DNA of 64,000 nt from an uncultured Chloroflexia bacterium (GCA_963772995.1 CAVYZQ010000013.1:78866-142865), one strand, 5' to 3'. Positions 35,502-49,767 are shown, counted from the stretch's first letter. Numbers and translations: made by a program. The notes: generated from the letters alone by a model not told the origin.

Positions 35502-36766
35502 GTGCCTGAACTGGACCCCAGCCGCCGTGCGGTCGTGACCGGCATGGGCGCCGTCATGCCGATCGGCAACGACTTCCCGACGTACTGGTCGAACCTGGTC
35601 GCAGGGGTCACGGGCACGCGGACCATCTCGAGCTTCGATCCCAGCGGGGTTCGAGGTGCGGATCGCGGCCGAGGTGCTCGACTTCGACCCGACGATCGCG
35701 ATGGACGCAAAGATGGCGCGGCGGATGAGCCGCTTCATCCATTTCGCGATGGCGGCCGGCAAGGAGGCCGTCGCCGACTCCGGCATCGATTCGCGGCGAT
35801 GACCGAGGAGAGCGGGATCGATGCGGCGTGGTCGTCAATACCGGCGGCGGCGGCATCGAGCAGATCATCGATGGAACCCACGTCCACGACCAGAAGGGGC
35901 CGCGGTTCGTGTCGGCCTTCGCGATCCCGGCGCTGTCGGGCTCGATGGGCGCCGCGATGCTGTCGATGGAGTACCACCTGACCGGGCCGGTGATGACCCA
36001 GGTCGCCGCCTGCGCGACGTCGGTGATCGCGTTCCAGGATGCGCTCCGGCTGATCAGGACGGGCGAGTGCGACGTCGTGCTGGCCGGCGGTTCGGAGGCG
36101 CCGATCTGGCCGATGGGCGTGGCCGCACTGGGGAACATGGGCGCGCTTTCGAAGCGCAACGACTCGCCGGAAACAGCCTCGCGGCCGTTCGATGCGACCC
36201 GCGACGGGTTCGTGCTCGGCGAGGGCGGCGGGGTCGTGGTCGTCGAGTCGCTCGCGCATGCGCGCGAGCGCGGAGCGACACCGATCGCCGAGATCATCGG
36301 CGCGGCGCTGACGGCCGACGCGTTTCACATCAGCGCCCCCGAACCGACCGGTCGCGGCCAGGCCCGGGCGATGTCGCTGGCGCTGCGCAACGCCGGGATC
36401 GCGCCCGAGGATGTCGACTACATCGTCGCCCACGGGACATCCACATCCCTCAACGACGTACCGAGACGCGCGCGATCAAGTCGGCCTACGGCGACTACGC
36501 CTACAAGGTCCCGATCAGCTCGCCGAAGTCGATGATCGGCCACCTCGTGGGTGCGGCCGGGATCGCGTCGGTGCTGGCCGGCCTCGGTGCCATCCGCGAC
36601 GGCGTCATCCCGCCGACGGCCAATCTCCACACGCCGGACCCCGAGTGCGACCTCGATTACACGCCGCTCGTCGCGCGGCAAGGCGCCGGTCCGGACCGTG
36701 GCCGTCAACGGGTTCGGGTTCGGCGGGCAGAACGCAGTCGCTATCTTCCGGGCCGTCGAGGGCTAG
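35502..36766 (+). CDS. fabF: Beta-ketoacyl-ACP synthase II, copy 2 (frameshifted)
   Basis: [51 protein letters not shown]. Confidence 0.85.
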
Positions 36767-37753: not shown

Positions 37754-38698
37754 TCACGTCTGGCGGACCCGCGGATCGATCAGCGCGATGGCGACATCGA
37801 CCAGGATGTTCATGACCACGATGCAGACCGTGGCGAAAAGGACGGTCCCCATCAGAAGCGGCAGGTCCTCCGAGTGAACCGCATCGAGCGCGAGTTTCCC
37901 GATGCCCGGCCACGAGAACACCGCCTCCACGACCACGACCCCGCCCAGCAGCAGGCCGAGATCGAGGCCGATCTGCGTGAGGAGCGGTGGCAGGGCGTTC
38001 GGGAATGCGTGGCGCCAGGCGACTCGACCCTCGGCCGCGCCCTTCGCCCGCGCCGTGCGCGTGTAGTCCTGGTGCAGCTCGTCGAGCAGCACCGTCCGGG
38101 TGATCCGGGCGTAGTAGGCGGCGAGCCCGACCGCCAGGGTCACGGCCGGAAGGAGCAGGTAGCGCAGGTCCCATGGCTTGTACTGGCCGATGGGAAAGAT
38201 CGATAGGCCCCACTGGAGCGCCGGCTGGAAGGCGAAGACGAAGATCAGCATGTAGCCGACCCAGAACGCGGGAGCGGCCACGAGAACGGACGTGCCGATC
38301 AGCCCGAGCCGGTCGGTCTTGCCGCCCGGGTTCCGCGCTGATCGCACCCCGAGCGGGATGCCGATCACGGCCGCCGCGAGGACGCCCGCGATCGCCAGTT
38401 CGAAGGTCGCCGGGACACGCTCGAGAACCATGTCAAGGACGGGGCGGTGCTGCTTGTACGACTCGCCGAAGTCGCCCTGGAGCGCCCGGGCGAGATACCC
38501 GACCATCTGCTCGGGCAGCGGCCGATCCATCCCGAGAGCCTCGCGGATCGCATGGACGGCCGCCGCCGAGGCGTTCCTCCCGGCGATCGCCCTGGCGGGG
38601 TCGCCAGGGGCCACGAACGCGAGGAGGAACGTGAAGATGCCGACGGCGAGGAGGACCAACATCCCCCAGGCGACCCGTCGGACGATGTATGCGACCAC
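37754..38698 (-). CDS. Peptide/nickel ABC transporter permease (DppB-like)
   Basis: [33 protein letters not shown]. Confidence 0.9.
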
Positions 38699-38770
38699 GT
38701 CACGATGATGGTGACCCGAACGCCGCCCGACAAGGGCGGGCGCCCGGGCCGGCGCTGGAGCGCGCGCTCG

Positions 38771-40529
38771 TCACTGGCTGACGGTGACGTTCCGTGCGTC
38801 GATGAAGTAGACCGGATGGAGAGGATTGACGCCACCGACGCGAGTCGATGACATGACGACGGTCTCGTTGAGCACGACCGGGATCCATGGGGCGTCCGCC
38901 ATGATCTTCTTCTGGATGTCCTGGTACATCGACAGGCGAGTCGCATCATCCTGCTCGGCGAGCGCCTTCGCGGACTCCGCGTCGACCTCCTTGTTGCAGT
39001 ACCACGCGGAGTTCGAGCCACCCTTCACCGCGGTGGCGCACGACAGGATCGGGTCGATGAAGTCGGATGGGTCCGGGAAGTCCTGGAACCAGCCGACGTA
39101 CACCAGTGGCGCCTGGTGCGGGGTCTGGATCGTGCCGAGCAGGACGCTGAACTCCTGCTGGACGATGTCGACGGTGATTCCGATCTGGGCGAGGTCCTGC
39201 TGGACCGCTTCGGCCTGCGCTTTGACGGTGTCGTCGGTGTACGTGTAGAGCGTGGTCTTGAATCCGGCCTCGTAACCGGCTTCCTTCATCAGCGCCTTGG
39301 CCTTGTCGACATCATGCGGATATGGATCGCAGGACTTGTCGTAGCCGGGCATGGGCGGCGGCAGGATGCACGTCGCCGGGCCGCCGCGACCGTTCTGGAT
39401 CCGAACCAGGTTGGCCTTGTCCACCGCGTAGTTCATGGCCTGGCGAACCTTGACGTTGGCGAGTGCCTTGTCGGGTCCACTGGTGTCGATGGATACGTAG
39501 AAGGTTGCCACATCGGTCCGGCGCAGGACCCTGTCCTTGAAGTTCGGGTCGTTGACCGCCGCGGTGAAGGACCCGCCCGGGATCGGATCGCTCATCAGGT
39601 CGAGCTGGTTGGCCTCGGTCTGCTGGAGCTGCGTGTTGGCATCGAGCCCGATGCGGATCTCGACGCCGGCGTTGGCGGGTGCGCTGCCCCAGTAGTCCGC
39701 GTTCTGCTCGAACCGGGCGATCGAGCCCTGCTTGTACTCGACCAGGTGGTACGGCCCGGTCCCGATCGGTGCCTTGGCGAACTCCGTCGCATCCAGGGGC
39801 GATTCGGCCGGGATGACCGAGCCGAACATCATGGCCAGGATGTAGGGCAGGCGCTTGTCAGGCTTCGTGAGGGTGATCTCGACCGTCGCGGGATCGGTCG
39901 CCTTGATCCCCGAGGCGGTCTTGGCGGTGCCGCCGAGGACCGCAGCCGAACCATCGATGATGGAGAAGAACGCCGGACCCACCGGTGACGGGTTCGGCTT
40001 CAGGCCCTGGTCGAGGATCCGATTGAGCGACGCGACGACGTCGTTCGCGTTCATCTCCCGGAGCACGGACCCGTCGCCCTTGTAGAACTTCACGCCGGAC
40101 CGGAGGTGGAACGTGTAGGTCCGCCCGTCCGCGGAGACCGTGGGCATCTCCTTGCGCCAGCCCCGGCACGAGCTTGGTGGTGGTGGCGTCGTATTCGACG
40201 AGCTGGTCATAGAGCAGACGGGCGGCCATCCACGACACCGTGTCATAGGCCAGTGCCGGATCGAACCACTGGATGTCGCCCTGCGATCCGATGGACAGGA
40301 TCCCTCCCCCGGATGCGCTGCTCGGACTGGCCGCCACGCTGGCTTCGGCGGAGGCGGACGCCGCGGCCTGCGTGGCCGGCGGGCTCGTCGGCGTGGCAGC
40401 GGATGCGGATGCTGCTGCCGAGCTCGGTGGCGCAGCCGAGGGGCTGGCACTCGTGCATGACCCGACGACGATCGCGAGGCACGTGATGGCGACCACCCAC
40501 CACGGCCCACGGCGGACTGTGCCGTCCAT
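38771..40529 (-). CDS. Family 5 ABC substrate-binding lipoprotein (frameshift near 40155)
   Basis: Lipobox-like VVGSC, Ser/Ala/Pro linker, FDPALAYD, PIGTGPY, VRQAMNYAVD, WFQDFPDP. Confidence 0.9.
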
Positions 40530-40733
40530 CGCTGGACCCTCCTGCCGAACGGCGCCGTTGATGATGGATACGGCCACCGACGCCGATTCGCGCGAACCTA
40601 TCACGGCGTCATCCGGAGTGACCGCTTGCGCGCGGACGATCGCCGGGCGCCACCTGTTTTTGTGGTGCGCTCTGTCAACACCGGACGCATCTCGTGACGA
40701 AGCCGCGAAGATCTCCGCACCCCGCGGCGAACC

Positions 40734-41699
40734 TCAATTTCTCCAGGCGCGCGGGTCGAGGGCGTCGCGGAGCGCGTCGCCCAGGATGTTGAACGCCAGG
40801 ACCGTGAGCGTGATGGCCAGTCCGGGGAGCACGACGAGCCGTGGATCCGTCGCGAACCAGCTGATGTGGTCGGCGAGCATCGTCCCCCACGTGGGAGTCG
40901 GCGGCGGAACACCGGCGCCCAGGTACGACAAGGTCGCCTCGAACAGCACGGTGGCAGCGATCCCCAGCGAGGCGTAGACCACCAGGATCGGCAGGATGTG
41001 TGGCATCACGTGGTCGAGGAAGATCCTCAGGCCGCGACTGCCGAGCGCCCGTGACGCCTCCACGAAGTCGCTGTTCCGCAGGACGAGCGTCCGGCTGTAC
41101 ACGATCCGTGCCGTGGCAGTCCACAGCGTCGTGCCGATGATGATCGTGACGAGGCCGATGCTCGGACCCAGCACGTACGCCATCGTGATCGTCAGGAGCA
41201 GGACCGGGAACGAGAGCCACAGGTCCGTGGACCGCATGAGCAGGCTCTCGACCGGGACCCCGACCGACCGCCCGCCCGGCAGGCCGAGGCGCGCAGAACG
41301 CGACAGCGCCGCCGTTGCCCCGACGAGGAGCCCGAGCACGGTGGCGATCACGTTGGCCCCGATCCCGATGGCGAGCGATGTGCGCGCCCCGTAGACCAGT
41401 CGAGTCCAGTAGTCGCGGCCGAGGCGGTCCAGCCCCAGCGGATGTTGCGGGCTGGGCCCTGCCGGGTCGCCGGTCAGCGGCATCGCGTCCCGGAACTGCT
41501 GGATCGGGTCGTACGGGGTGAGGAGCGGCGCAAGGATGGCAGCGAGCACGATCGCCGCGGCGAGGACGCCACCGACCCAGAACATCGGGTTCCGGCTGAG
41601 GGTCTCCAGGGCTCGCCGGGCGCCACCGACGGGCCGTCGGCCGGCGTCGAGCACCGCCGTCCTCTCGGTCGCGGTGCCGGGCTCGACAAGCTGCGCCAT
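40734..41699 (-). CDS. Peptide ABC transporter permease (DppC-like)
   Basis: HPLGLDRLGRD...YGARTSL, FVEASRALG, EATLSYLG, PTWG, FNILGDALRDALDP. Confidence 0.9.
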   Translation of the reverse strand: MAQLVEPGTATERTAVLDAGRRPVGGARRALETLSRNPMFWVGGVLAAAIVLAAILAPLLTPYDPIQQFRDAMPLTGDPAGPSPQHPLGLDRLGRDYWTRLVYGARTSLAIGIGANVIATVLGLLVGATAALSRSARLGLPGGRSVGVPVESLLMRSTDLWLSFPVLLLTITMAYVLGPSIGLVTIIIGTTLWTATARIVYSRTLVLRNSDFVEASRALGSRGLRIFLDHVMPHILPILVVYASLGIAATVLFEATLSYLGAGVPPPTPTWGTMLADHISWFATDPRLVVLPGLAITLTVLAFNILGDALRDALDPRAWRN

Positions 41700-41754
41700 T
41701 GCACCGCAGCGTATCGGGCGGCGCAAGATGCTTATCGCACACGGCGGCAGGCGA

Positions 41755-41823
41755 CCTGTCCGAAACCCGACACCTCGCCAGTCCGGCACGAGCCACAGGT
41801 GACAAACAGCCGACATGTACGAT
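41755..41823 (+). promoter_or_regulatory. Putative activator site(s) plus -10 box (TACGAT) for the repeat-peptide gene
   Basis: CCTGTCCGAAACCCGACACCTCGCCAGTCCGGCACGAGC matches 43975-44013 at 29/39 positions; -10 box 63 bp downstream. Confidence 0.65.
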
Positions 41824-41852
41824 CGCGGTCCATATCAGCAGAAGGAGATCCG

Positions 41853-42227
41853 ATGGGCGAGCACAAGCCCGGCGAATACAACATGCCGGAAGAGTCGGAC
41901 ACCGAAGGGCAGCTGAAGCGGCGCGACGTCACCGACGAGGGTGGGTCGGGCGGCGGCGAGGATCTCAAGCGGCGCGACATCGTCGACGAGGAGTCGGACA
42001 CCGAAGGCCAGCTGAAGCGGCGCGACATGACCGGCGACGCCCCCTCGAGCGGCGAGGATCTGCGTCGGCGTGACGCGACCGACGACGAGGAATCGGACAC
42101 CGAGGGCCAGCTCAAGCGGCGCGACGTCACCGACGAGGGTGGGTCGAGCGGCGGCGAGGATCTCAGGCGACGCGACATCGTCGACGACGAATCGGACACC
42201 GAGGGCCAGCTGAAGCGGCGCGACTGA
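41853..42227 (+). CDS. 124-aa acidic tandem-repeat protein; putative multi-copy peptide precursor
   Basis: SD GAAGGAG; 4x ESDTEGQLKRRD alternating with 3x GEDL(K/R)RRD; synonymous variation between repeats. Confidence 0.85.
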   Translation: MGEHKPGEYNMPEESDTEGQLKRRDVTDEGGSGGGEDLKRRDIVDEESDTEGQLKRRDMTGDAPSSGEDLRRRDATDDEESDTEGQLKRRDVTDEGGSSGGEDLRRRDIVDDESDTEGQLKRRD

Positions 42228-42238
42228 CGTACACGCCC

Positions 42239-42274
42239 GCGGTGACGCCTCGTCCTCCTCTGGGGCGTCACCGC
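42239..42274 (+). terminator. GC-rich stem-loop after the precursor gene (no U tract; pause or stability element)
   Basis: GCGGTGACGCCTC...GGGGCGTCACCGC, a 13-bp stem. Confidence 0.55.
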
Positions 42275-42303: not shown

Positions 42304-43966
42304 GTGCTGACCGCGTATCGTCGCGTCTTCGGAAACCCGTGGCTCGCCCGCTTGATGGCGGGCGAGTTCATCTCGTCCATCGGCGACTGGCTGTACATGG
42401 TCGGCATGCTGATCGTGGTCTACGACCAGTCCGACGATCCGCTGGCGCTCGGGCTGGTCGGGGCGGCACGCATCGCGCCGTACGTCCTCTTCTCGGTGCC
42501 GGCGGGGATCGTCGCGGACCGGTTCGACCGGCGAACTATCCTCCTCACCACCGACATCATCCGCGGCGGCCTGCAGGTCGTCCTTGCGATCCTCGTGCTG
42601 AACGCCGCGCCGACCATCTGGATCGTCGCCGTGGCGATGGTCGCCACGAGCGTGGCGGTCTTCTTCGGACCAGCGATCGGGGCTTATCTCCCCTCGCTCG
42701 TGGACGACGAGGCCGATCTCGGACCGGCGAATAGCGTGTGGGCCACGCTCGACAACCTTGCCTACTTCATCGGGCCGGCCGTCGCCGGTCTACTGATCGC
42801 CGCCGGGGGCCTGGTCGCCTCGTTCATCCTGAATGCGGCCTCCTTCGCCGTCGTCGCGGTGATCCTGGCGACGCTCCCCGCCAAGCGCACGGCAGCCGGC
42901 CCGACCGAGCTCGACTCCCGGGGCGCTGGCGAACGGTCGGGCGCACAGGCGAACGGCCCGCGCTCTGCCGCGGGCGGCTGGGCGACGATCGTCGGCCGGA
43001 TGCCGGCCGTGATGCTCCTCGACGCCGCGACGAGCTTCGTCGGTGGCGGCCTCGGGGTGCTGACGGTCATCGTGGCCGTCAATTCGCTGGGTGTCGGAGA
43101 GGCCGGGACCGGCTACCTCAACGCCGCGATCGGGGTGGGCGGGATCGCGGCCGGGATCGTCGCGGGCTGGGTCGTGCTGCGACGGCTCGACGTCGGGATC
43201 GTCGTGGGCAGCCTCATCTGCGGCGCCGGCCTGATCGCACTGGGCCTCGCGGCGGATCTCCTCCTCGCCTCGGTGGCGATCGCCATCGCGGCCGGCGCAC
43301 AGCTCGTGCTCGACGTGATCAACGCGACGCTGCTCCAGCGAACGGTTCCCGACGGGGAGCGCGGACGAGCGATGGGCGTCCTCCAGATCTCGAGCGCCCT
43401 GACCGCGATCGTCGGCGCATTCGCGGCCCCGCTCCTCGCAGATGCCTACGGCGTCCCGGCGGCGCTGGCGACGATCGCGGTCATCGGGACGGTCGTCGGG
43501 GTGGCCTCGGGGGCATGGCTGCGCTCTGCGGCCCGGCATCCTGCCCACCGCATCCGAGCCGCGCGCCCTGGAGATCCTTCGGGGCAGCGTCTTCGGCGGC
43601 CTGCTTCCGGCCAGGCTCGAGGCGGTCGCGAGGGACCTCGTCCCGGTCGATGTCGCCCAGGGCGAGACGATCATCGAGGAGGGCGACGCCGCGGATCGCT
43701 TCTACTTCGTCGATCGCGGGACGTTCAGGGTCTCGCAACGAGCCGCCGATGGCGGAGTGACCGTCCTGCGGTCGTTGGGTCCGGGTGAGACATTCGGCGA
43801 GATCGGGCTGCTGACGTCGGTGCCGCGAACGGCGACCGTGACGGCCGAGTCGGAGGGACGTCTCTTCGCGCTCGACCGCGCCGGGTTCCTGGGACTCGTC
43901 GATGCCGGGCCGGGCCTGACCACCCAATTGCTCGAGCGATACCGGGCTCTGCCCGTGCGCGCCTAG
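42304..43966 (+). CDS. MFS transporter fused to a C-terminal cyclic-nucleotide-binding domain (frameshift near 43530)
   Basis: GIVADRFDRR motif A and about 12 hydrophobic segments, then IIEEGDAADRFYFVDRG...GETFGEIGLLTSVPRTATV. Confidence 0.85.
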
Positions 43967-43974
43967 ACACAGCG

Positions 43975-44043
43975 CCTGTCCGATACCGGACGCCCGGCGC
44001 GTCCGCCATGGGCTGTAGATTTCCGAGGAAAAGGGCCTAATCT
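43975..44043 (+). promoter_or_regulatory. Second copy of the putative activator site(s) plus -10 box (TAATCT)
   Basis: CCTGTCCGATACCGGACGCCCGGCGCGTCCGCCATGGGC; -10 box 63 bp downstream, as at 41755. Confidence 0.65.
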
Positions 44044-44088
44044 GCCGCATGGTCCCCAGCGCGAGGGATCGATGTGAGGAGAGGTCAC

Positions 44089-44283
44089 ATGAACGCACAG
44101 GACGTGCCCGACGAGCTGCTCGGTCCCGAGACCGAGATCGACGAGACCGCAGGCGACGCCGGCAGGGCGCCGGCGCACCGGAACGTCTCGCCTGCCCCGA
44201 CGGCTGACGACGACACGCAAGGACAGGGCGGCAAGGTCTTCGCCGTCGATCGATCCGACGCAGAGGACGCCGGGCGCCCGTAG
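44089..44283 (+). CDS. 64-aa acidic peptide with a DDDTQGQ motif
   Basis: SD GAGGAGAGG before the ATG; motif resembles ESDTEGQ of the 41853 protein. Confidence 0.7.
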   Translation: MNAQDVPDELLGPETEIDETAGDAGRAPAHRNVSPAPTADDDTQGQGGKVFAVDRSDAEDAGRP

Positions 44284-44401
44284 CCTGTCAGGCCAGCGAG
44301 CGTCACCGGCTGCGCGGCTGCCTCGACCAGCCAGTCACCGGGCCATACACTCCAGCCACGCATCCGGAATCACCGGATCGGCTGGTGAGGTCTCGAACTG
44401 C

Positions 44402-45127
44402 ATGCCCGACCGCGAGGCAGCCGCCCCGGCGTCCGCCCAGGACCGCGCGGTCATCGAGGCCATCTCGCGGTCGCGTCTGTTCCGCGGCGTCGCGATCGAG
44501 GACCTCGCCGTCATCGCCCCGATGCTCCGCGAGCGCCGGTACCGGTCGGGCGAGACGATCTTCCACGAGGGGGACCCGGGCGACGCGATGCACGTCATCG
44601 CCTCGGGTGGGGCGAAGATCTCCATCGCATCCCAGGAAGGCGACGAGGCGATCCTCGCAACCCTCGGCCCGGGAGAGGTATTCGGCGAGCTCGTCCTTCT
44701 CGACGGCGCGCCACGTTCCGCGACGGCGGTGGCGGTCGAGCCGACGGTGACCTATACCCTCCCCCAGACTGCGTTCGGCCCGCTCATCGCCGGGAATGAC
44801 GCGTTCCGGACGGCAGTCCTTCGCAACCTCGCGCTCGAGCTGCGTCGCCTCACCGCGCATGCCTCCGAGCTGCACTTCCTCGACCTCCCGGGCAGGCTGG
44901 CCAGCCGGCTGGCCCGGATGGCGGAGGACGTGGCACCCGGCCAGCCCCTGGAGGTGCACCTCGGCCGCGGCTACACCCAATCGGAGCTGGCGGCGATGAT
45001 CGGGGGCACACGCCAGAGCGTGAATCGGGTGATGTCGGAGCTCGTCTCGGAGGGACTCGTTAGGCTCGAGCCACACGACCTCGTCGTCGTCGACGTCCGT
45101 CGGATGGCCGAACGCGCTCGATGGTGA
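44402..45127 (+). CDS. Crp/Fnr family transcriptional regulator
   Basis: IFHEGDPGD, FGELVLLDGAPRSATA, HTH TQSELAAMIGGTRQSVNR. Confidence 0.93.
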   Translation: MPDREAAAPASAQDRAVIEAISRSRLFRGVAIEDLAVIAPMLRERRYRSGETIFHEGDPGDAMHVIASGGAKISIASQEGDEAILATLGPGEVFGELVLLDGAPRSATAVAVEPTVTYTLPQTAFGPLIAGNDAFRTAVLRNLALELRRLTAHASELHFLDLPGRLASRLARMAEDVAPGQPLEVHLGRGYTQSELAAMIGGTRQSVNRVMSELVSEGLVRLEPHDLVVVDVRRMAERARW

Positions 45128-45936
45128 AGGACGGCCGGCCGCGCGATCTTTCCGCGGACGCGGGCGCACTCCTGCGCCAGGTCGCCCTCCGGAGCGAGAC
45201 CGCGGTGCGCCTCGAGACCGAGGTCGAGATCACCCTCCTGCGCTCGATCGTCGATGCGACCGTCGGCATCTTCGCCGCCGAAGCCGCGTCGATCGCTCTG
45301 CTCGACGAAGCGACAGGCCAGTTGCGGTTCGTGGTGGCGGCGGGCGCCCAGGGCCAGCCGGTGGTCGGCCTCACGATCGGGGCGACGCAGGGTGTCGCGG
45401 GCTACGTGTTCTCGACGGGCGAGAGCATCGCGATGACCGATCCGGTGCAGGACCCGCGTTTCGGCCGCGAGGTGGCGGAGCAGACCGGTTACGTCCCGCG
45501 GTCCATCCTCGCCGTGCCGCTCGAAGACGGGTCGCGGACGATCGGGGTGCTCGAGGTCTTCGACAAGCGCGCCGGCCCGTTCACGATGCAGGACATCGAG
45601 ATCGCCTCGGTCTTCGCCAGGCAGGCCGCGACCGCGATCAAGGTGGCCGCGCGGACACGCCAGGTGCGCTCGATCCTGACCGACGCGCTGCGCGCCGAGG
45701 CCACCACCGAGGGCGACGCGGACGCCGATGCGGCGGTCGCCGAGGTCGTCTCGGTCGCGACCGTGCGGCAGTCCGGCGACGACCGCTTCTGGGCCTTCGT
45801 CGATGCGATCGCGGCGATGCGCCAGGTTTCGGCAGCCGACCGTGATCTCGCGATCGACCTGCTCTCGGTCATCGGCCGCCACCGCGCTCCTGCCACACGC
45901 GAAGCGGCGAGGGGGCTGGGCCGAGCCCGCCGGTGA
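45121..45936 (+). CDS. GAF-domain protein with no recognisable output domain
   Basis: ASIALLDE..LRFVVAAG, GVAGYVF, DPRF..EVAEQTGYVPRSILAVPL, GPFT..D. Confidence 0.85.
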   Translation: MVKDGRPRDLSADAGALLRQVALRSETAVRLETEVEITLLRSIVDATVGIFAAEAASIALLDEATGQLRFVVAAGAQGQPVVGLTIGATQGVAGYVFSTGESIAMTDPVQDPRFGREVAEQTGYVPRSILAVPLEDGSRTIGVLEVFDKRAGPFTMQDIEIASVFARQAATAIKVAARTRQVRSILTDALRAEATTEGDADADAAVAEVVSVATVRQSGDDRFWAFVDAIAAMRQVSAADRDLAIDLLSVIGRHRAPATREAARGLGRARR

Positions 45937-46795
45937 GCGAGGAATCGCTCCCGGCGTGGAGTGAGCCGTTCACCGCCGACCGCCGAGGGGATCTCAGCCG
46001 CCGCGGACCGTTCGCCGACACGGACATGCCCCTCGACTGGCGAGAGGCGGACGGCCGAGGGGTCACGGTGGCGATCATCAATTCGGGCGTCGACGGAGAC
46101 CACCCCGCGGTCGGCGGCCGGCTGGTTCGGAGCCTGCGGGTGGAGCTCTCGCCCGACGACGGCGAGGTCATCGACGACCCGGACGGCGGCGACGTCCTGG
46201 GTCACGGCACGGCCTGCGCGGGGATCATCCATTCGCTGGCACCCGCCGCCGAGATCGTCTCGATCCGCGTCCTCGGTCCCGACAACACGGGCAAGGGACG
46301 AGCCTTCGCCCATGCCCTCGACTGGGTCGTGGAACAGCGGATCCCCGTCGCCAACCTCAGCCTCTCGTCGCGCAGCGAGGCCCTCTACGGGACGTTCCAC
46401 GACCTCGTCGACCAGGCCTATTTCGCCAACTGCCTGCTGGTCTGCTCGGCGAGCAATACGCCGGGGCAGGAGAGCTATCCGTCGCTGTTCTCCTCGGTCG
46501 TGTCGGTCGCCGCGCACGACATCCCGGATCCGACGACGTACTTCTACAACCCGCGATCCGCCCGGTCGAGTTCGGCGCGTGGGGAGTGGCCGTGCCGGTC
46601 GCGTGGAGCCAGCGAGGTTCGATCGTGGCGACCGGCAACAGCTTCGCGGCGCCCCACATCTCGGGCCTTCTTGCGCGCCTCCGCTCGACCTACCCCGATG
46701 CGACCCCGTTCGAAGCGAAGACGATGCTGGCGTTCGGGGCATCCACGCCGATGCGCGATGGGCGACCGGGTCGGCCGGACATCAGCCGGCGGTGA
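45933..46795 (+). CDS. S8 (subtilisin-like) serine peptidase with no signal peptide (frameshift near 46560)
   Basis: VAII(N)SGVD, GHGTACAG, NLSL, TGNSFAAPHISG. Confidence 0.85.
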
Positions 46796-47291
46796 GCGTC
46801 CGGCCCTCGTATGCCTCCATCGCGCGATGTGCTCGGCTGACAGCGGGACCGGCCGCGCGGCCGCGTAGTCGTACCGGACGAGGACCGAATCGCTGACGGC
46901 GACGAGCCGGGGCTCCCCACCGGGCGCCGAAGCCGTCAGGCGATGCTCGAGGTGGAACGACGTCCGCCCGACCTTGGTCGCGCGCGTCTCGACGGTCACG
47001 GTCTCGCCGTAGAAGGCTGGGGCCCGGTAGGTGATGCGGGCTTCGGCAAGGATGAGGCTTTCGAGGCCGCGTGCTGCGATGGTCGATCGGCACGCCGGTC
47101 ACATCGGTCCAGTACTTGATGCGGGCGATCTCGCAGTAGGTCAGGTAGGTGGCGTTGTTGACGTGGCCCATGGCGTCGGTGTCCGCGAACCGGACCTCGA
47201 TGGTCACGCGGTGGTTGAACGGCCCCGTGAGGTCGCGCGGATCGACCGGCGTCGGCGTCGGCGTCGGGGTCGGGTCGGCGGGAGGCTGCAT
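46782..47291 (-). CDS. Acyl-CoA thioesterase (hot-dog fold; frameshifted)
   Basis: VRFADTDAMGHVNNATYLTYCEIAR, KVGRTSF. Confidence 0.85.
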   Translation of the reverse strand: MQPPADPTPTPTPTPVDPRDLTGPFNHRVTIEVRFADTDAMGHVNNATYLTYCEIARIKYWTDVTGVPIDHRSTRPRKPHPCRSPHHLPGPSLLRRDRDRRDARDQGRADVVPPRASPDGFGARWGAPARRRQRFGPRPVRLRGRAAGPAVSRAHRAMEAYEGRTLTAG

Positions 47292-47356
47292 CGCGACGAA
47301 TGGTACCCACGGGTCGGGGGCGGCGGAGGCGTGCGGCGCCGCGTGCGATCGCGAGG

Positions 47357-49767
47357 TCAGCGAGGAGCCAGCCCGCTCGCGGGCGCATCGAGCGCTGCAT
47401 TCGGCCGCCGCCGCGGCGCGTCGGGGCTGGCGTCGAACCCACGAAGGCGAAGCGAGTTCGCGACCACCGACACGGACGACAGCGCCATCGCAGCCGCGGC
47501 GAGCCCGGATTGAGCGTGATCCCGAACATCGGATAGAGCACGCCCATCGCGACCGGGATCAGCACGATGTTGTAGGCGAACGCCCAGAACAGGTTCTGGC
47601 GGATGACCGACATCGTGGCACGCGAGAGCCCGATCGCGGCGGCGACGGCCCGCGGGTCGCCCCCGACGAGGGTCACGTCAGATGCCTCCACGGCGACGTC
47701 GGCGCCGGTTCCGATGGCGACCCCGAGGTCGGCCGCGGCCAGGGCGGGGGCGTCGTTGATGCCGTCGCCGACCATGGCGACCACGTGTCCCGTCGAACGC
47801 AGCTTCTCGATCAGGGCGGCCTTGTCGGCCGGACGCGCTTCGGCGCGGACTCGCTCCGACGGGATCCCGACCCGGGACGCGACGGCCTCCGCGGTCGCGG
47901 GGCCATCGCCGGTAAGGAGCCAGACCTCGATACCCGCGTCGATCGAGGGCACGGACCGCGGCGGCGGATTCCGTCCTCACCGGGTCGCCGATGGCGACGA
48001 GGCCTGCGGCCGCGCCATCGATGGCGACGTAGGAGGTCGTTCGGCCGGCGGCCGCGGACTCCGCTGCCGCGTCCGAGAGCGGCGCTCAGGTCGACACCGA
48101 GGTCCGCCATCAGCCGTGCGTCGCCGATGGCGACAGTTCGCTCTCGCCCGGTCTCGTCCGCGACGCGCCCGGTCACGCCGGCCCCCGCGATCGCGGCGAA
48201 GTCGGATACGTCTCCCGAACCCGAGCTCGTCCTCGCGCGCCCTGGCGAGGATCGCGGCACCGAGCGGGTGCTCGCTTCCCTTCTCGAGGGCGCCGGCCGC
48301 GTCGAGGACCTCGCCGACGGACCATCCCGGTGCCGCGATCACGCTTTCGACCACGGGGCGTCCAAGCGTGAGCGTGCCCGTCTTGTCCATGACGACGGCG
48401 CTGACGCGGTGAGCGGTCTCGAGCGCCTCGCCGCCACGGATGAGGATGCCGGCCTCCGCGCCACGCCCCGTGCCGACCATGATCGCGGTCGGCGTCGCGA
48501 GACCCATCGCGCACGGGCAGGCGATGACGAGGACGCTGACGAATGCGGTCAGCGCGTACGTGAACTGCGGCTCCGGACCGCCGGCGAACCACAGCACAAA
48601 CGTCGCCGACGCGACGATCAGGACGATCGGGACGAAGACCTCGCGCGATCCGGTCGGCAAGGCGCTGGATGGGCGCCTTCGAGCCTTGCGCACGACTGAC
48701 GAGCTCGACGATGCGAGCGAGCGCCGTGTCGCGCCCGACACGCGTGGCGCGCATGACGAACGTCCCGGTCGTGTTGAGCGTCGCCCCGATGACCTCGTCA
48801 CCCAGCGCCACGACGACCGGATAGGCTCGCCGGTCAGCATCGAGGCGTCGATGGCCGAGCCCCCGTCCACGACGATCGCCGTCGACCGGGACCCGCTCGC
48901 CCGGGCGGACGCGCAGCAGCGTCCCGACCGTCACGGCCTCGAGCGCCACCTGGGCGTCGGCGCCCGTCGGGGCCTGCGCCCGCGACGTTGGCCGTCGTCG
49001 GGCTCAGGGCCATGAGCCTGCGGATCGCGCCCGGTCGTCCGGACCTTGGCGCGAGCCTCCAGCCAGCGACCCAGGAGGACGAGGCCGATGATGATCGTCG
49101 ACGAGTCGAAATAGGTCTCGGGCTTCATCCCGGCCGCGACGAACACGGCGGGCCAGAGCGCGACGAGGACGCTGTATCCCCACGCCGCGGACGTGCCGAC
49201 GGCCACCAGCGTGTCCATGTTGGTCGTGCCATGGCGTGCGGCGCGCCACGCCGCGCGATAGAAGCGACGGCCGGCCCAGACCTGGACGATCGTGGCCGGG
49301 ATGAGGATGATCCGGTTGAGCTCCACGAGACCGATAGCGGTCTGTGGCGAGAACATCGCGATCATGATCAGGAGGGCGGTGACGATCGAGACAGAGGCTT
49401 CGATCAGGAGCGTCCGGGACTCGTGCGCGCGGGCGGCGTCGTCGGCCGTGAACGCGTCGGCGAGCGCGGGCTGGTCGGTGCCTTCCGCCTCAGTCGCCGT
49501 CGCCTCGGTCGGGCCCTTTGGCCTCCGGCGGACGTCGTAGCCGGCCGATTCGATGGCTCCCACGAGCGCGCTGCGGTCGACGACCTCGGGCCGGTAGCGG
49601 ATCGTCGCCATCTCGGTCGCGAGATTGACGGTCGCACCCTCGACGCCCGGTGTCCTGACCAGGAATCGTTCGATGCGGTTCACGCACGACGCACAGGTCA
49701 TGCCCTCGATGGGCAGGGAGATCTCGGCGGGCGCTGAGGTGGTGTGGGGGTCGGGCTCATACTCCAT
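47357..49767 (-). CDS. copA: Cu(I)-type heavy-metal P1B ATPase (frameshifted; start 49767 or 49760)
   Basis: GMTCASC, MLTGEP, IACPCAMGLATP, DKTGTLT, SEHPL, MVGDGINDAPALA, YN and MALSS motifs. Confidence 0.88.

Follow-up and report, generated by a model that had tools for sequence, protein, structure and literature searches.

A conserved module of a disordered acidic repeat protein, a subtilase and cyclic-nucleotide-type sensors in soil Chloroflexota and Actinomycetota

A 64,000-nucleotide stretch of DNA from an uncultured Chloroflexia bacterium (GCA_963772995.1 CAVYZQ010000013.1:78866-142865), referred to here as the window, carries a small gene for a repeat mini-protein of 124 amino acids (P0001; positions 41853..42227, plus strand). 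This gene is followed on the same strand by genes for an MFS-type transporter with a cyclic-nucleotide (cNMP)-binding tail, a Crp/Fnr-type regulator, a GAF protein and a subtilase of family S8. We found that the repeat protein and these four partners form a conserved five-part module that is present in two phyla. P0001 itself belongs to a protein family without a curated entry, in which a short acidic motif is the conserved element.

The repeat gene consists of 124 codons starting with ATG, and a Shine-Dalgarno sequence AAGGAG (41842..41847, plus strand) precedes the start codon by 5 nt, in agreement with the strong ribosome-binding site reported in a preliminary description of this DNA. Translation of 41853-42227 also bore out the seven L(K/R)RRD motifs in an A-B-A-B-A-B-A pattern that had been described there. 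The [KR]RRD copies end at residues 25, 42, 58, 74, 91, 108 and 124; ESDTEGQLKRRD closes four of the units and GEDL[KR]RRD the three degenerate ones, and the unit length is 16-17 amino acids except for the first unit, which has 25. Tandem Repeats Finder describes the same region as a 99-nt period present 3.3 times with 78% matches. A second element, DTEGQ, which forms part of ESDTEGQ in each copy, occurs four times on the plus strand, at 41898..41912, 41997..42011, 42096..42110 and 42195..42209, corresponding to residues 16-20, 49-53, 82-86 and 115-119 of P0001.

The repeat open reading frame (ORF) is a real small gene under protein-level selection. Pairwise comparison of the core codons of the repeat units revealed 21 synonymous versus 2 non-synonymous differences, so that the selection previously deduced from synonymous codon variation holds. 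The GC content at codon positions 1/2/3 amounts to 0.74/0.44/0.89 in the repeat gene and to 0.75/0.49/0.88 in the adjacent Crp gene. Since this pattern resembles that of the neighbouring genes, two long opposite-strand ORFs are by-products of the high G+C content, and the possibility that the repeat gene itself is a spurious or antisense ORF was ruled out by the codon-position pattern together with conservation. Short contigs from soil metagenomes span the gene, showing 0-7 differences but no indels; one variant contains three synonymous changes along with the conservative replacements L87V, S99G and R105K. Downstream of the stop codon lies a 14-bp GC-rich hairpin (42239..42274, plus strand). 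Although the hairpin noted earlier is thus present, it is not followed by a U-tract, and its centroid energy of -28 kcal/mol (z = -1.23) is no better than that of shuffled sequences. A promoter and terminator scan detected neither a promoter nor a terminator-like site at the repeat gene.

The product of this gene is a cytoplasmic, intrinsically disordered acidic repeat mini-protein. P0001 is very acidic (net charge about -18, 40/124 residues being D or E), Cys, Trp and Phe are all absent, the lack of Cys having been stated before, and Ser and Thr are scarce. A single-sequence AlphaFold2 model showed no secondary structure at all, with a mean predicted local distance difference test score (pLDDT) of 59 and a predicted template modelling score of 0.11. 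The N-terminus MGEHKPGEYNMPEESD contains no hydrophobic segment, as judged by inspection without a predictor, which agrees with the earlier statement that a Sec signal is missing.

Pfam and NCBIfam contain no family for P0001, and seven members of the family outlined below gave nothing over the cut-offs of these collections. Large protein searches with P0001 retrieved only two close orthologues, P0002 (88% identity, truncated at its end) and P0003 (69-71% identity, one A-B pair fewer); the remaining matches were unrelated repeat proteins, and the ESM Atlas provided one Chloroflexota cluster at 0.78, which is a lead only. A same-genus protein, P0004, has the same N-terminus H-[KR]-P-G-E-Y as P0001, followed by ten copies of DEDDTEGQKFQRTATP, and the two proteins match reciprocally (E = 8.4e-7 and 9e-8). 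Because P0004 combines this N-terminus with ten DEDDTEGQKFQRTATP copies, the element shared with P0001 is DTEGQ and not KRRD. By the terms of the preliminary description itself, basic clusters that homologues do not conserve speak against its reading: L(K/R)RRD is kept only in P0002 and P0003, the next same-genus relatives have KFQR or SFKAR in its place, and the dibasic site is absent from most of the family.

With P0004 as query, 38/201 genomes of the taxonomic family were matched. The matched genes are small ORFs with an ATG start and GGAG-type ribosome sites, and they encode proteins in which a short basic spacer follows a stretch of acidic residues that closes with D[VT]EGH. The length of the unit varies between genomes from 13 to ~33 amino acids and is uniform inside one protein. 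From all fetched loci we gathered 173 distinct family proteins of 41-316 amino acids with 2-14 motifs, whose source records are labelled Chloroflexota or Actinomycetota; single-motif members exist as well, so that the family ranges from 1 to 14 motif copies. Across the 173 proteins, motif position -1 is V in 83% and T in 14%, the last residue is H in 97% and Q in 3%, and the unconstrained position -3 is D in 77%, D at -2, E and G having been required by the collecting pattern, so that their invariance is not a result. Basic or small residues predominate behind the motif, and otherwise the repeat unit is variable. The last residue of the motif can be H, Q, M or L, at times mixed inside one protein; Q is found in the window's clade and H in most family members. 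The conserved element is the acidic motif [DE][DE]D[VT]EG[HQ], of which DTEGQ is a rare variant, and P0001 is a glutamine-type (DTEGQ) member of an uncurated family with short, freely varying and mostly basic spacers. A literature search, which did not cover supplementary files, yielded no description of the family or of the module.

The C-terminal tails of the family are of several kinds: some members end in a helix-like ..NP.L..LA.ARE.DIQR...HKK, some in ..S[RK]GE, and others, including P0001, in neither. Many genomes (L193, L198, L199, L220, L224, L226 and others) possess two repeat genes that flank the module, in which case the copy upstream of the Crp gene has the tail ..ARE.DIQR..HKK and the copy between the S8 and MFS genes ends in ..S[RK]GE. 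A Pup-like tag, considered on account of the members ending in ...[RK]GE, was set aside, the module being without a ligase gene. Variant repeat proteins, whose units are of the HPNPTG type and whose motifs are EDTEGQ or DDTEGM, were observed at L216:6810-7403 (minus strand) and L235:5538-5906 (plus strand); the S8 proteins beside them have Ser only at the position equivalent to residue 154 of subtilisin BPN'.

Using the neighbours in the window as queries, orthologues of all four partners were found in 15/16 loci of 20 kb around family members, whereas the sixteenth (L059) contained none of the four. The genes occur in several orders, and in 6 of the 16 loci the module is flanked by two repeat genes. 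In the window, all four partners lie within 42304-46795 and are arranged as in the same-genus locus L058. An intact reference operon, L088, encodes on one strand the MFS-cNMP protein (561 amino acids), the Crp-type regulator (240), the repeat protein (115), the GAF protein (258) and the S8 subtilase (277).

The association extends beyond the phylum of the window. A DNA pattern for two DDVEGH motifs, applied to contigs of one genome per species, found more than 120 stretches, of which 80 loci were examined. Their titles comprise, in Chloroflexota, Limnocylindria-type metagenome-assembled genomes and 'uncultured Chloroflexia' and, in Actinomycetota, Geodermatophilus, Nocardioides, Naasia, Frankiaceae, Sporichthyaceae, Gaiellaceae and Propionibacteriales; Nocardioides, Geodermatophilus and Naasia are among the cultured carriers. 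Both S8 and GAF genes were present within the at most 8 kb fetched in 31/44 Actinomycetota-labelled and 24/36 Chloroflexota-labelled loci, several of the loci without both being cut by locus ends. The GAF orthologue occurs once per genome in 124/201 genomes of the taxonomic family (a tally that includes the unpublished G250). All of 40 loci fetched around it, 39 of them in genomes missed by the P0004 protein search, carry Crp, GAF and S8 genes; an ORF with at least two motifs is located within 6 kb in 27/40, and some of the other loci hold single-motif forms. In a sample of the phylum, the GAF protein had a match in 44/401 genomes (including the unpublished G397), and full-length matches with at least 60% identity came from two families of the class.

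In the window, the MFS_1/MFS_3 transporter with its fused C-terminal cNMP-binding domain, delimited with Pfam and by tblastn against an intact same-genus orthologue, occupies 42304..43966 (plus strand). It is followed by the Crp/Fnr-type regulator (cNMP_binding and HTH_Crp_2; 44402..45127, plus strand), the recognition helix of which is GGTRQSVNR; the form GG[TS]RQ[ST]VNR is present in 90/92 module regulators. Both the regulator and the transporter tail have cNMP-binding domains according to Pfam and, by inspection, the FGE...R[ST]A cassette, a significant element. The GAF protein gene, encoding also a C-terminal helical bundle (45121..45936, plus strand), overlaps the stop of the Crp gene with its start, and its own stop overlaps the start of the S8 gene (45933..46795, plus strand). 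The GAF stop/S8 start overlap is seen in most loci, and the two genes are translationally coupled. The L088 GAF protein was modelled as a GAF domain plus helical bundle (pLDDT 92.5), and its nearest sequences and folds are cAMP- or cGMP-binding GAF domains. The S8 protein is without a signal peptide or propeptide, Peptidase_S8 being the only domain found. Its orthologue of 277 amino acids has subtilisin BPN' and Carlsberg as best PDB matches, and its nearest curated models, QhpE and mycosin, are both under their cut-offs. Among 15 S8 orthologues, the Asp motif was found in 15/15, the His motif was uncaught in L097 and the Ser motif was missing in L069, a locus that ends inside the S8 gene. An N-terminal extension, LPAWSEPF, is nearly invariant (region of residues 6-12, L088 numbering) and might cover the active site, as in intracellular subtilisins. 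A complex prediction for the S8, GAF and repeat proteins of the L088 set had a score of 0.00, which decides neither for nor against a complex.

Upstream of the repeat gene we found the palindrome TGTCCGAAACCCGACA (41757..41772), an exact TGTC-N8-GACA site centred ~88 nt from the ATG. In 162 non-redundant 200-nt regions upstream of repeat genes, the exact form occurs in 88/162 regions versus 2/162 in shuffles and, allowing at most one mismatch, in 150/162 versus 10/162. At this tolerance the site was detected in 86/90 regions of family f1, in 41/45 Actinomycetota-labelled and in 23/27 Chloroflexota-labelled regions. The site lies ~90-120 nt before the start codon, its centre peaking at -100 to -120, and its inner positions are preferentially those of TGTCG/CGACA. 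The window's genome as a whole has 22 exact palindromes versus 31.8 expected from base composition, i.e., no genome-wide enrichment. The palindrome is presumed to be the operator of the Crp-type regulator of the module, which would bind to it. Like the operators of CRP and CooA (TGTGA-N6-TCACA and TGTCA-N6-CGACA, respectively), it is palindromic over 16 bp with TGT...ACA arms, precedes the gene to be regulated by a constant spacing and adjoins a Crp-family regulator. In contrast, the arms of the module's site are TGTC(G)/(C)GACA, and the recognition helix of the regulator has Gln where E. coli CRP has Glu. Another exact palindrome (G000:C28:20462) is situated upstream of a second MFS_3-like gene in the same genome, possibly a further target of the regulator.

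The intergenic region of the palindrome is common to the repeat gene and a divergent Opp/Dpp-type peptide ABC importer (permeases and SBP_bac_5; 37754-41816, minus strand). The preliminary description had suggested a possible connection of the repeat unit with the neighbouring S8, GAF and cNMP domains and with the substrate-binding protein of this importer. The first part of this link stands, given the conserved synteny in two phyla; the second does not, for Opp/SBP_bac_5 genes were matched beside family members in 0/16 and 0/80 loci, which places them outside the module, and a link between the repeat gene and this transporter was discarded. Clustering of the neighbours in 56 loci, all of one taxonomic family, revealed a 2-oxoacid oxidoreductase, a P-type ATPase, an M24 peptidase and a ketoacyl synthase as recurrent additional genes, which may owe their position to inherited gene order. 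The P-type ATPase adjoins the module in the window (46996-48870, minus strand); homologues with the heavy-metal-binding motif MTCASCV were noted in 23/56 loci of the same taxonomic family (L051-L066, L187-L226).

Given a real, selected repeat gene and an S8/GAF/cNMP synteny that is conserved in two phyla, we favour a processed multi-copy precursor over the other readings. We suggest, with a probability of roughly 0.45, that the module is a cassette under the control of a second messenger, the repeat protein being cut by the subtilase behind the last motif residue and the pieces perhaps being exported by the pump. A cyclic nucleotide would activate the Crp-type regulator, which would then bind TGTC-N8-GACA and switch on the repeat gene. 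The subtilase, gated by the GAF protein, would read [VT]-E-G-[HQ] as P4-P1 and cut after H/Q. In the case of P0001 this would result in the pieces 1-20, 21-53, 54-86, 87-119 and 120-124, that is, a 20-residue N-terminal part, three peptides of 33 residues (LKRRD...DTEGQ) and a tail of 5 residues. The nucleotide-gated MFS protein may export these pieces or their further products.

The last motif residue, H or Q, is the best-supported candidate for the site of the cut. A motif with G at P2, V/T at P4 and H/Q at P1 fits the usual preferences of the subtilisin subsites. In addition, within the family, the S8 position aligned to Gly154 of BPN', which is part of the S1 wall and adjoins the oxyanion Asn, is Ser in 7/7 Q-type loci, including the window, and Asn in at least 95% of 57 other S8 rows; in a separate reading of the pocket, every H-type row of this family has Asn. 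Of 92 columns that are at least 95% conserved in these 57 rows, only two change throughout the Q clade, one in the pocket and one in the N-terminal extension, the latter being an Arg at position 31 (L088 numbering) that is conserved in H-type S8 proteins. Both the subsite pattern and the pocket change favour cleavage after H/Q over the cleavage after RR that had been proposed initially. Among six Q-type metagenome contigs with a readable pocket, Ser was found in L240, L246 and L266.

Several findings weigh against the cleavage model. In a quick maximum-likelihood tree, all seven S8 sequences of the Q type fall into one clade (Shimodaira-Hasegawa-like approximate likelihood ratio test 86), which reduces the pocket covariation to a single evolutionary event. 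The other three Q-type metagenome contigs, L251, L265 and L267, represent a separate Q-type lineage and retain Asn in the pocket, and the H-type loci L139 and L095 have Ser at the BPN' Ala152-aligned position 170 and His at 172 (L088 numbering). With one clade and a counter-lineage, the S1-pocket covariation is a lead only. The motif statistics are biased, as the loci were gathered with motif patterns, and the existence of single-motif members means that tandem multiplicity is not essential. MFS transporters are not known to export peptides of 14-33 residues. Lastly, the copy of the module in the window may be inactive, or else contain assembly errors: relative to intact same-genus orthologues, there is a frame change in the MFS-cNMP gene (~43520-43524, tblastn) and another in the S8 gene (~46556-46562), and the S8 motif AIINSGVD (~46059-46061) has Asn in place of the catalytic Asp, which is present in 15/15 orthologues (AIIDSGV). 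This Asn may reflect either genuine inactivation or an erroneous base.

Instead of being cut, the repeat protein might act as a multivalent scaffold or regulator, each motif of which is a short linear motif that binds a partner from the module, be it a cNMP-binding domain, the GAF protein or, in the manner of a substrate-like inhibitor, the S8 cleft, so that protease or regulator is restrained until the second messenger arrives. A 6-7-residue motif that is invariant amid freely varying disordered spacers, at a valency of 1-14, would suit such a function; synteny and shared operator are as strict as for the cleavage model, and the structural neighbours of the GAF model include PDE6 GAF domains solved with the inhibitory P-gamma subunit. 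The tolerance for H, Q, M or L at the end of the motif and the change in the S1 wall of the Q clade are rather what one would expect of a residue that enters S1, which is also compatible with an inhibitor. We consider this reading unlikely.

Still less probable, in our opinion, is an acidic protein that binds cations or metals and buffers or chaperones Ca, Zn, Cu or Fe, with neighbours that are unrelated and merely co-regulated. In its favour one can cite the 40 acidic residues of P0001, the His in the motif of most members, often accompanied by further His after it (GHGH, GGH), the apparent resemblance of DDDVEG to a DxDxDG-type loop, and the heavy-metal-type P-type ATPase that adjoins the module in 23/56 loci. 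However, His is replaced by Gln in the window and by Met or Leu elsewhere with the motif otherwise unchanged, and metal binding does not explain why protease, GAF protein and pump accompany the family in both phyla. Moreover, the ATPase is seen only in the loci of one family, where its neighbourhood may reflect inherited gene order.

The substitution of the catalytic Asp and the frame changes in the S8 and MFS genes could also signify that the locus is decaying, in which case this genome is losing the module and the repeat gene persists although its protease is gone. The repeat gene itself is nevertheless under purifying selection. A KAS-like gene (~36440-36551) and the P-type ATPase (~47960) also look split over two frames, and since the genome is only 63% complete in as few as 39 contigs, indels of the assembly are the likely cause. 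The soil-metagenome contigs cover the two frame-change sites and the Asp-to-Asn codon too thinly to judge. Decay is, in our estimate, about as improbable as the metal-binding function.

The prohormone-like precursor of the preliminary description, cut after the RR of L(K/R)RRD into peptides of 16-17 residues ending in RR, is now hard to maintain. It can draw on the regularity of the seven [KR]RRD sites, on their retention in the two closest orthologues and on the S8 gene nearby. On the other hand, the same-genus relatives with KFQR or SFKAR and most of the family have no equivalent dibasic site, the S8 protein is a subtilisin-like enzyme of 277 residues in which Peptidase_S8 alone was found, and the precursor is without a secretory signal. 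Lowest of all is the credibility of a multi-core precursor of peptides that are made on ribosomes and modified after translation (RiPPs), with cores chemically modified before release, the alternative offered alongside: the repeated units resemble multi-core precursors, such as the microviridin precursor described in PMC5934393, and S8 has a weak match to PatA/PatG (TIGR03895 of NCBIfam, E = 1.6e-4), but no peptide-modifying enzyme is recurrent among the conserved neighbours in the 56 clustered loci, the PatA score of 20.6 is far from the cut-off of 421, and P0001 has no Cys and few Ser/Thr.

The proposed cassette shares features with several known systems. Like the cyanobactin pathway (multi-core precursor PatE, S8 proteases PatA/PatG), it combines repeated units with short recognition flanks and a subtilisin-family protease encoded in the same cluster; unlike there, a leader peptide, Cys and heterocyclase or macrocyclase domains are all absent, the sensors are of the cNMP type and the transporter is an MFS protein. 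In the pair QhpC/QhpE, a cytoplasmic subtilisin-like protease trims a peptide precursor ahead of its export; in the module, a protease of this kind without a signal peptide would likewise act on a small ribosomal product in the cytoplasm, and QhpE is the best curated match of S8 (E = 4.4e-31). The score of 107.9 is, however, below the cut-off of 165, neither a radical-SAM partner nor amine dehydrogenase genes accompany the module, and the substrate would be a repeat protein. Eukaryotic multi-copy prohormones and pheromones (yeast alpha-factor with Kex2, pro-TRH, fungal dikaritin precursors) similarly hold many peptide copies separated by spacers and are served by an S8-family protease. They are secretory substrates with dibasic sites and are processed by kexins with a P-domain, whereas in the module a signal peptide is missing by inspection, conservation does not extend to the dibasic site, and instead of an S8B protease with a P-domain there is a small subtilisin-like enzyme of the cytoplasm.

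The intracellular subtilisin (ISP) of Bacillus is likewise made without signal peptide and classical propeptide and carries a short conserved N-terminal extension, which is inhibitory in ISP and corresponds here to LPAWSEPF; the GAF, repeat protein, Crp and MFS partners are foreign to ISP biology. In the Phr/Rap systems (RRNPP), small peptides are matured by subtilisin-family proteases and taken up again through Opp, and an Opp-type importer adjoins the repeat gene in the window. In contrast to Phr/Rap, there is no Sec signal here and Opp is not conserved beside the family (0/16 and 0/80 loci); no tetratricopeptide repeat receptor was noticed at the locus, where no search was aimed at such genes.

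In its most far-reaching form, which we regard as doubtful, the cleavage model would describe a cyclic-nucleotide-gated 'polyprotein dicer' of soil Chloroflexota and Actinomycetota, in which one messenger at once triggers transcription through Crp and its operator, release of the cytoplasmic subtilase through the GAF protein and opening of the exporter, so that bursts of lineage-specific peptides with a common acidic end ...DD[VT]EG[HQ] are emitted. Such peptides might serve as signals or capture metals, and the system would parallel prohormone processing, but inside the bacterial cytoplasm. The model has testable parts, namely the 16-bp operator, the 6-residue recognition motif, a candidate determinant in the S1 pocket and natural pairs of H-type and Q-type loci.

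For genome annotation, the analysis demonstrates that the short low-complexity ORFs of this family, although they match no curated family, are real conserved genes. If the model is true, three different cyclic-nucleotide sensors would be joined to proteolysis and export, and two abundant soil phyla would possess a peptide-producing cassette whose central component has no curated family.

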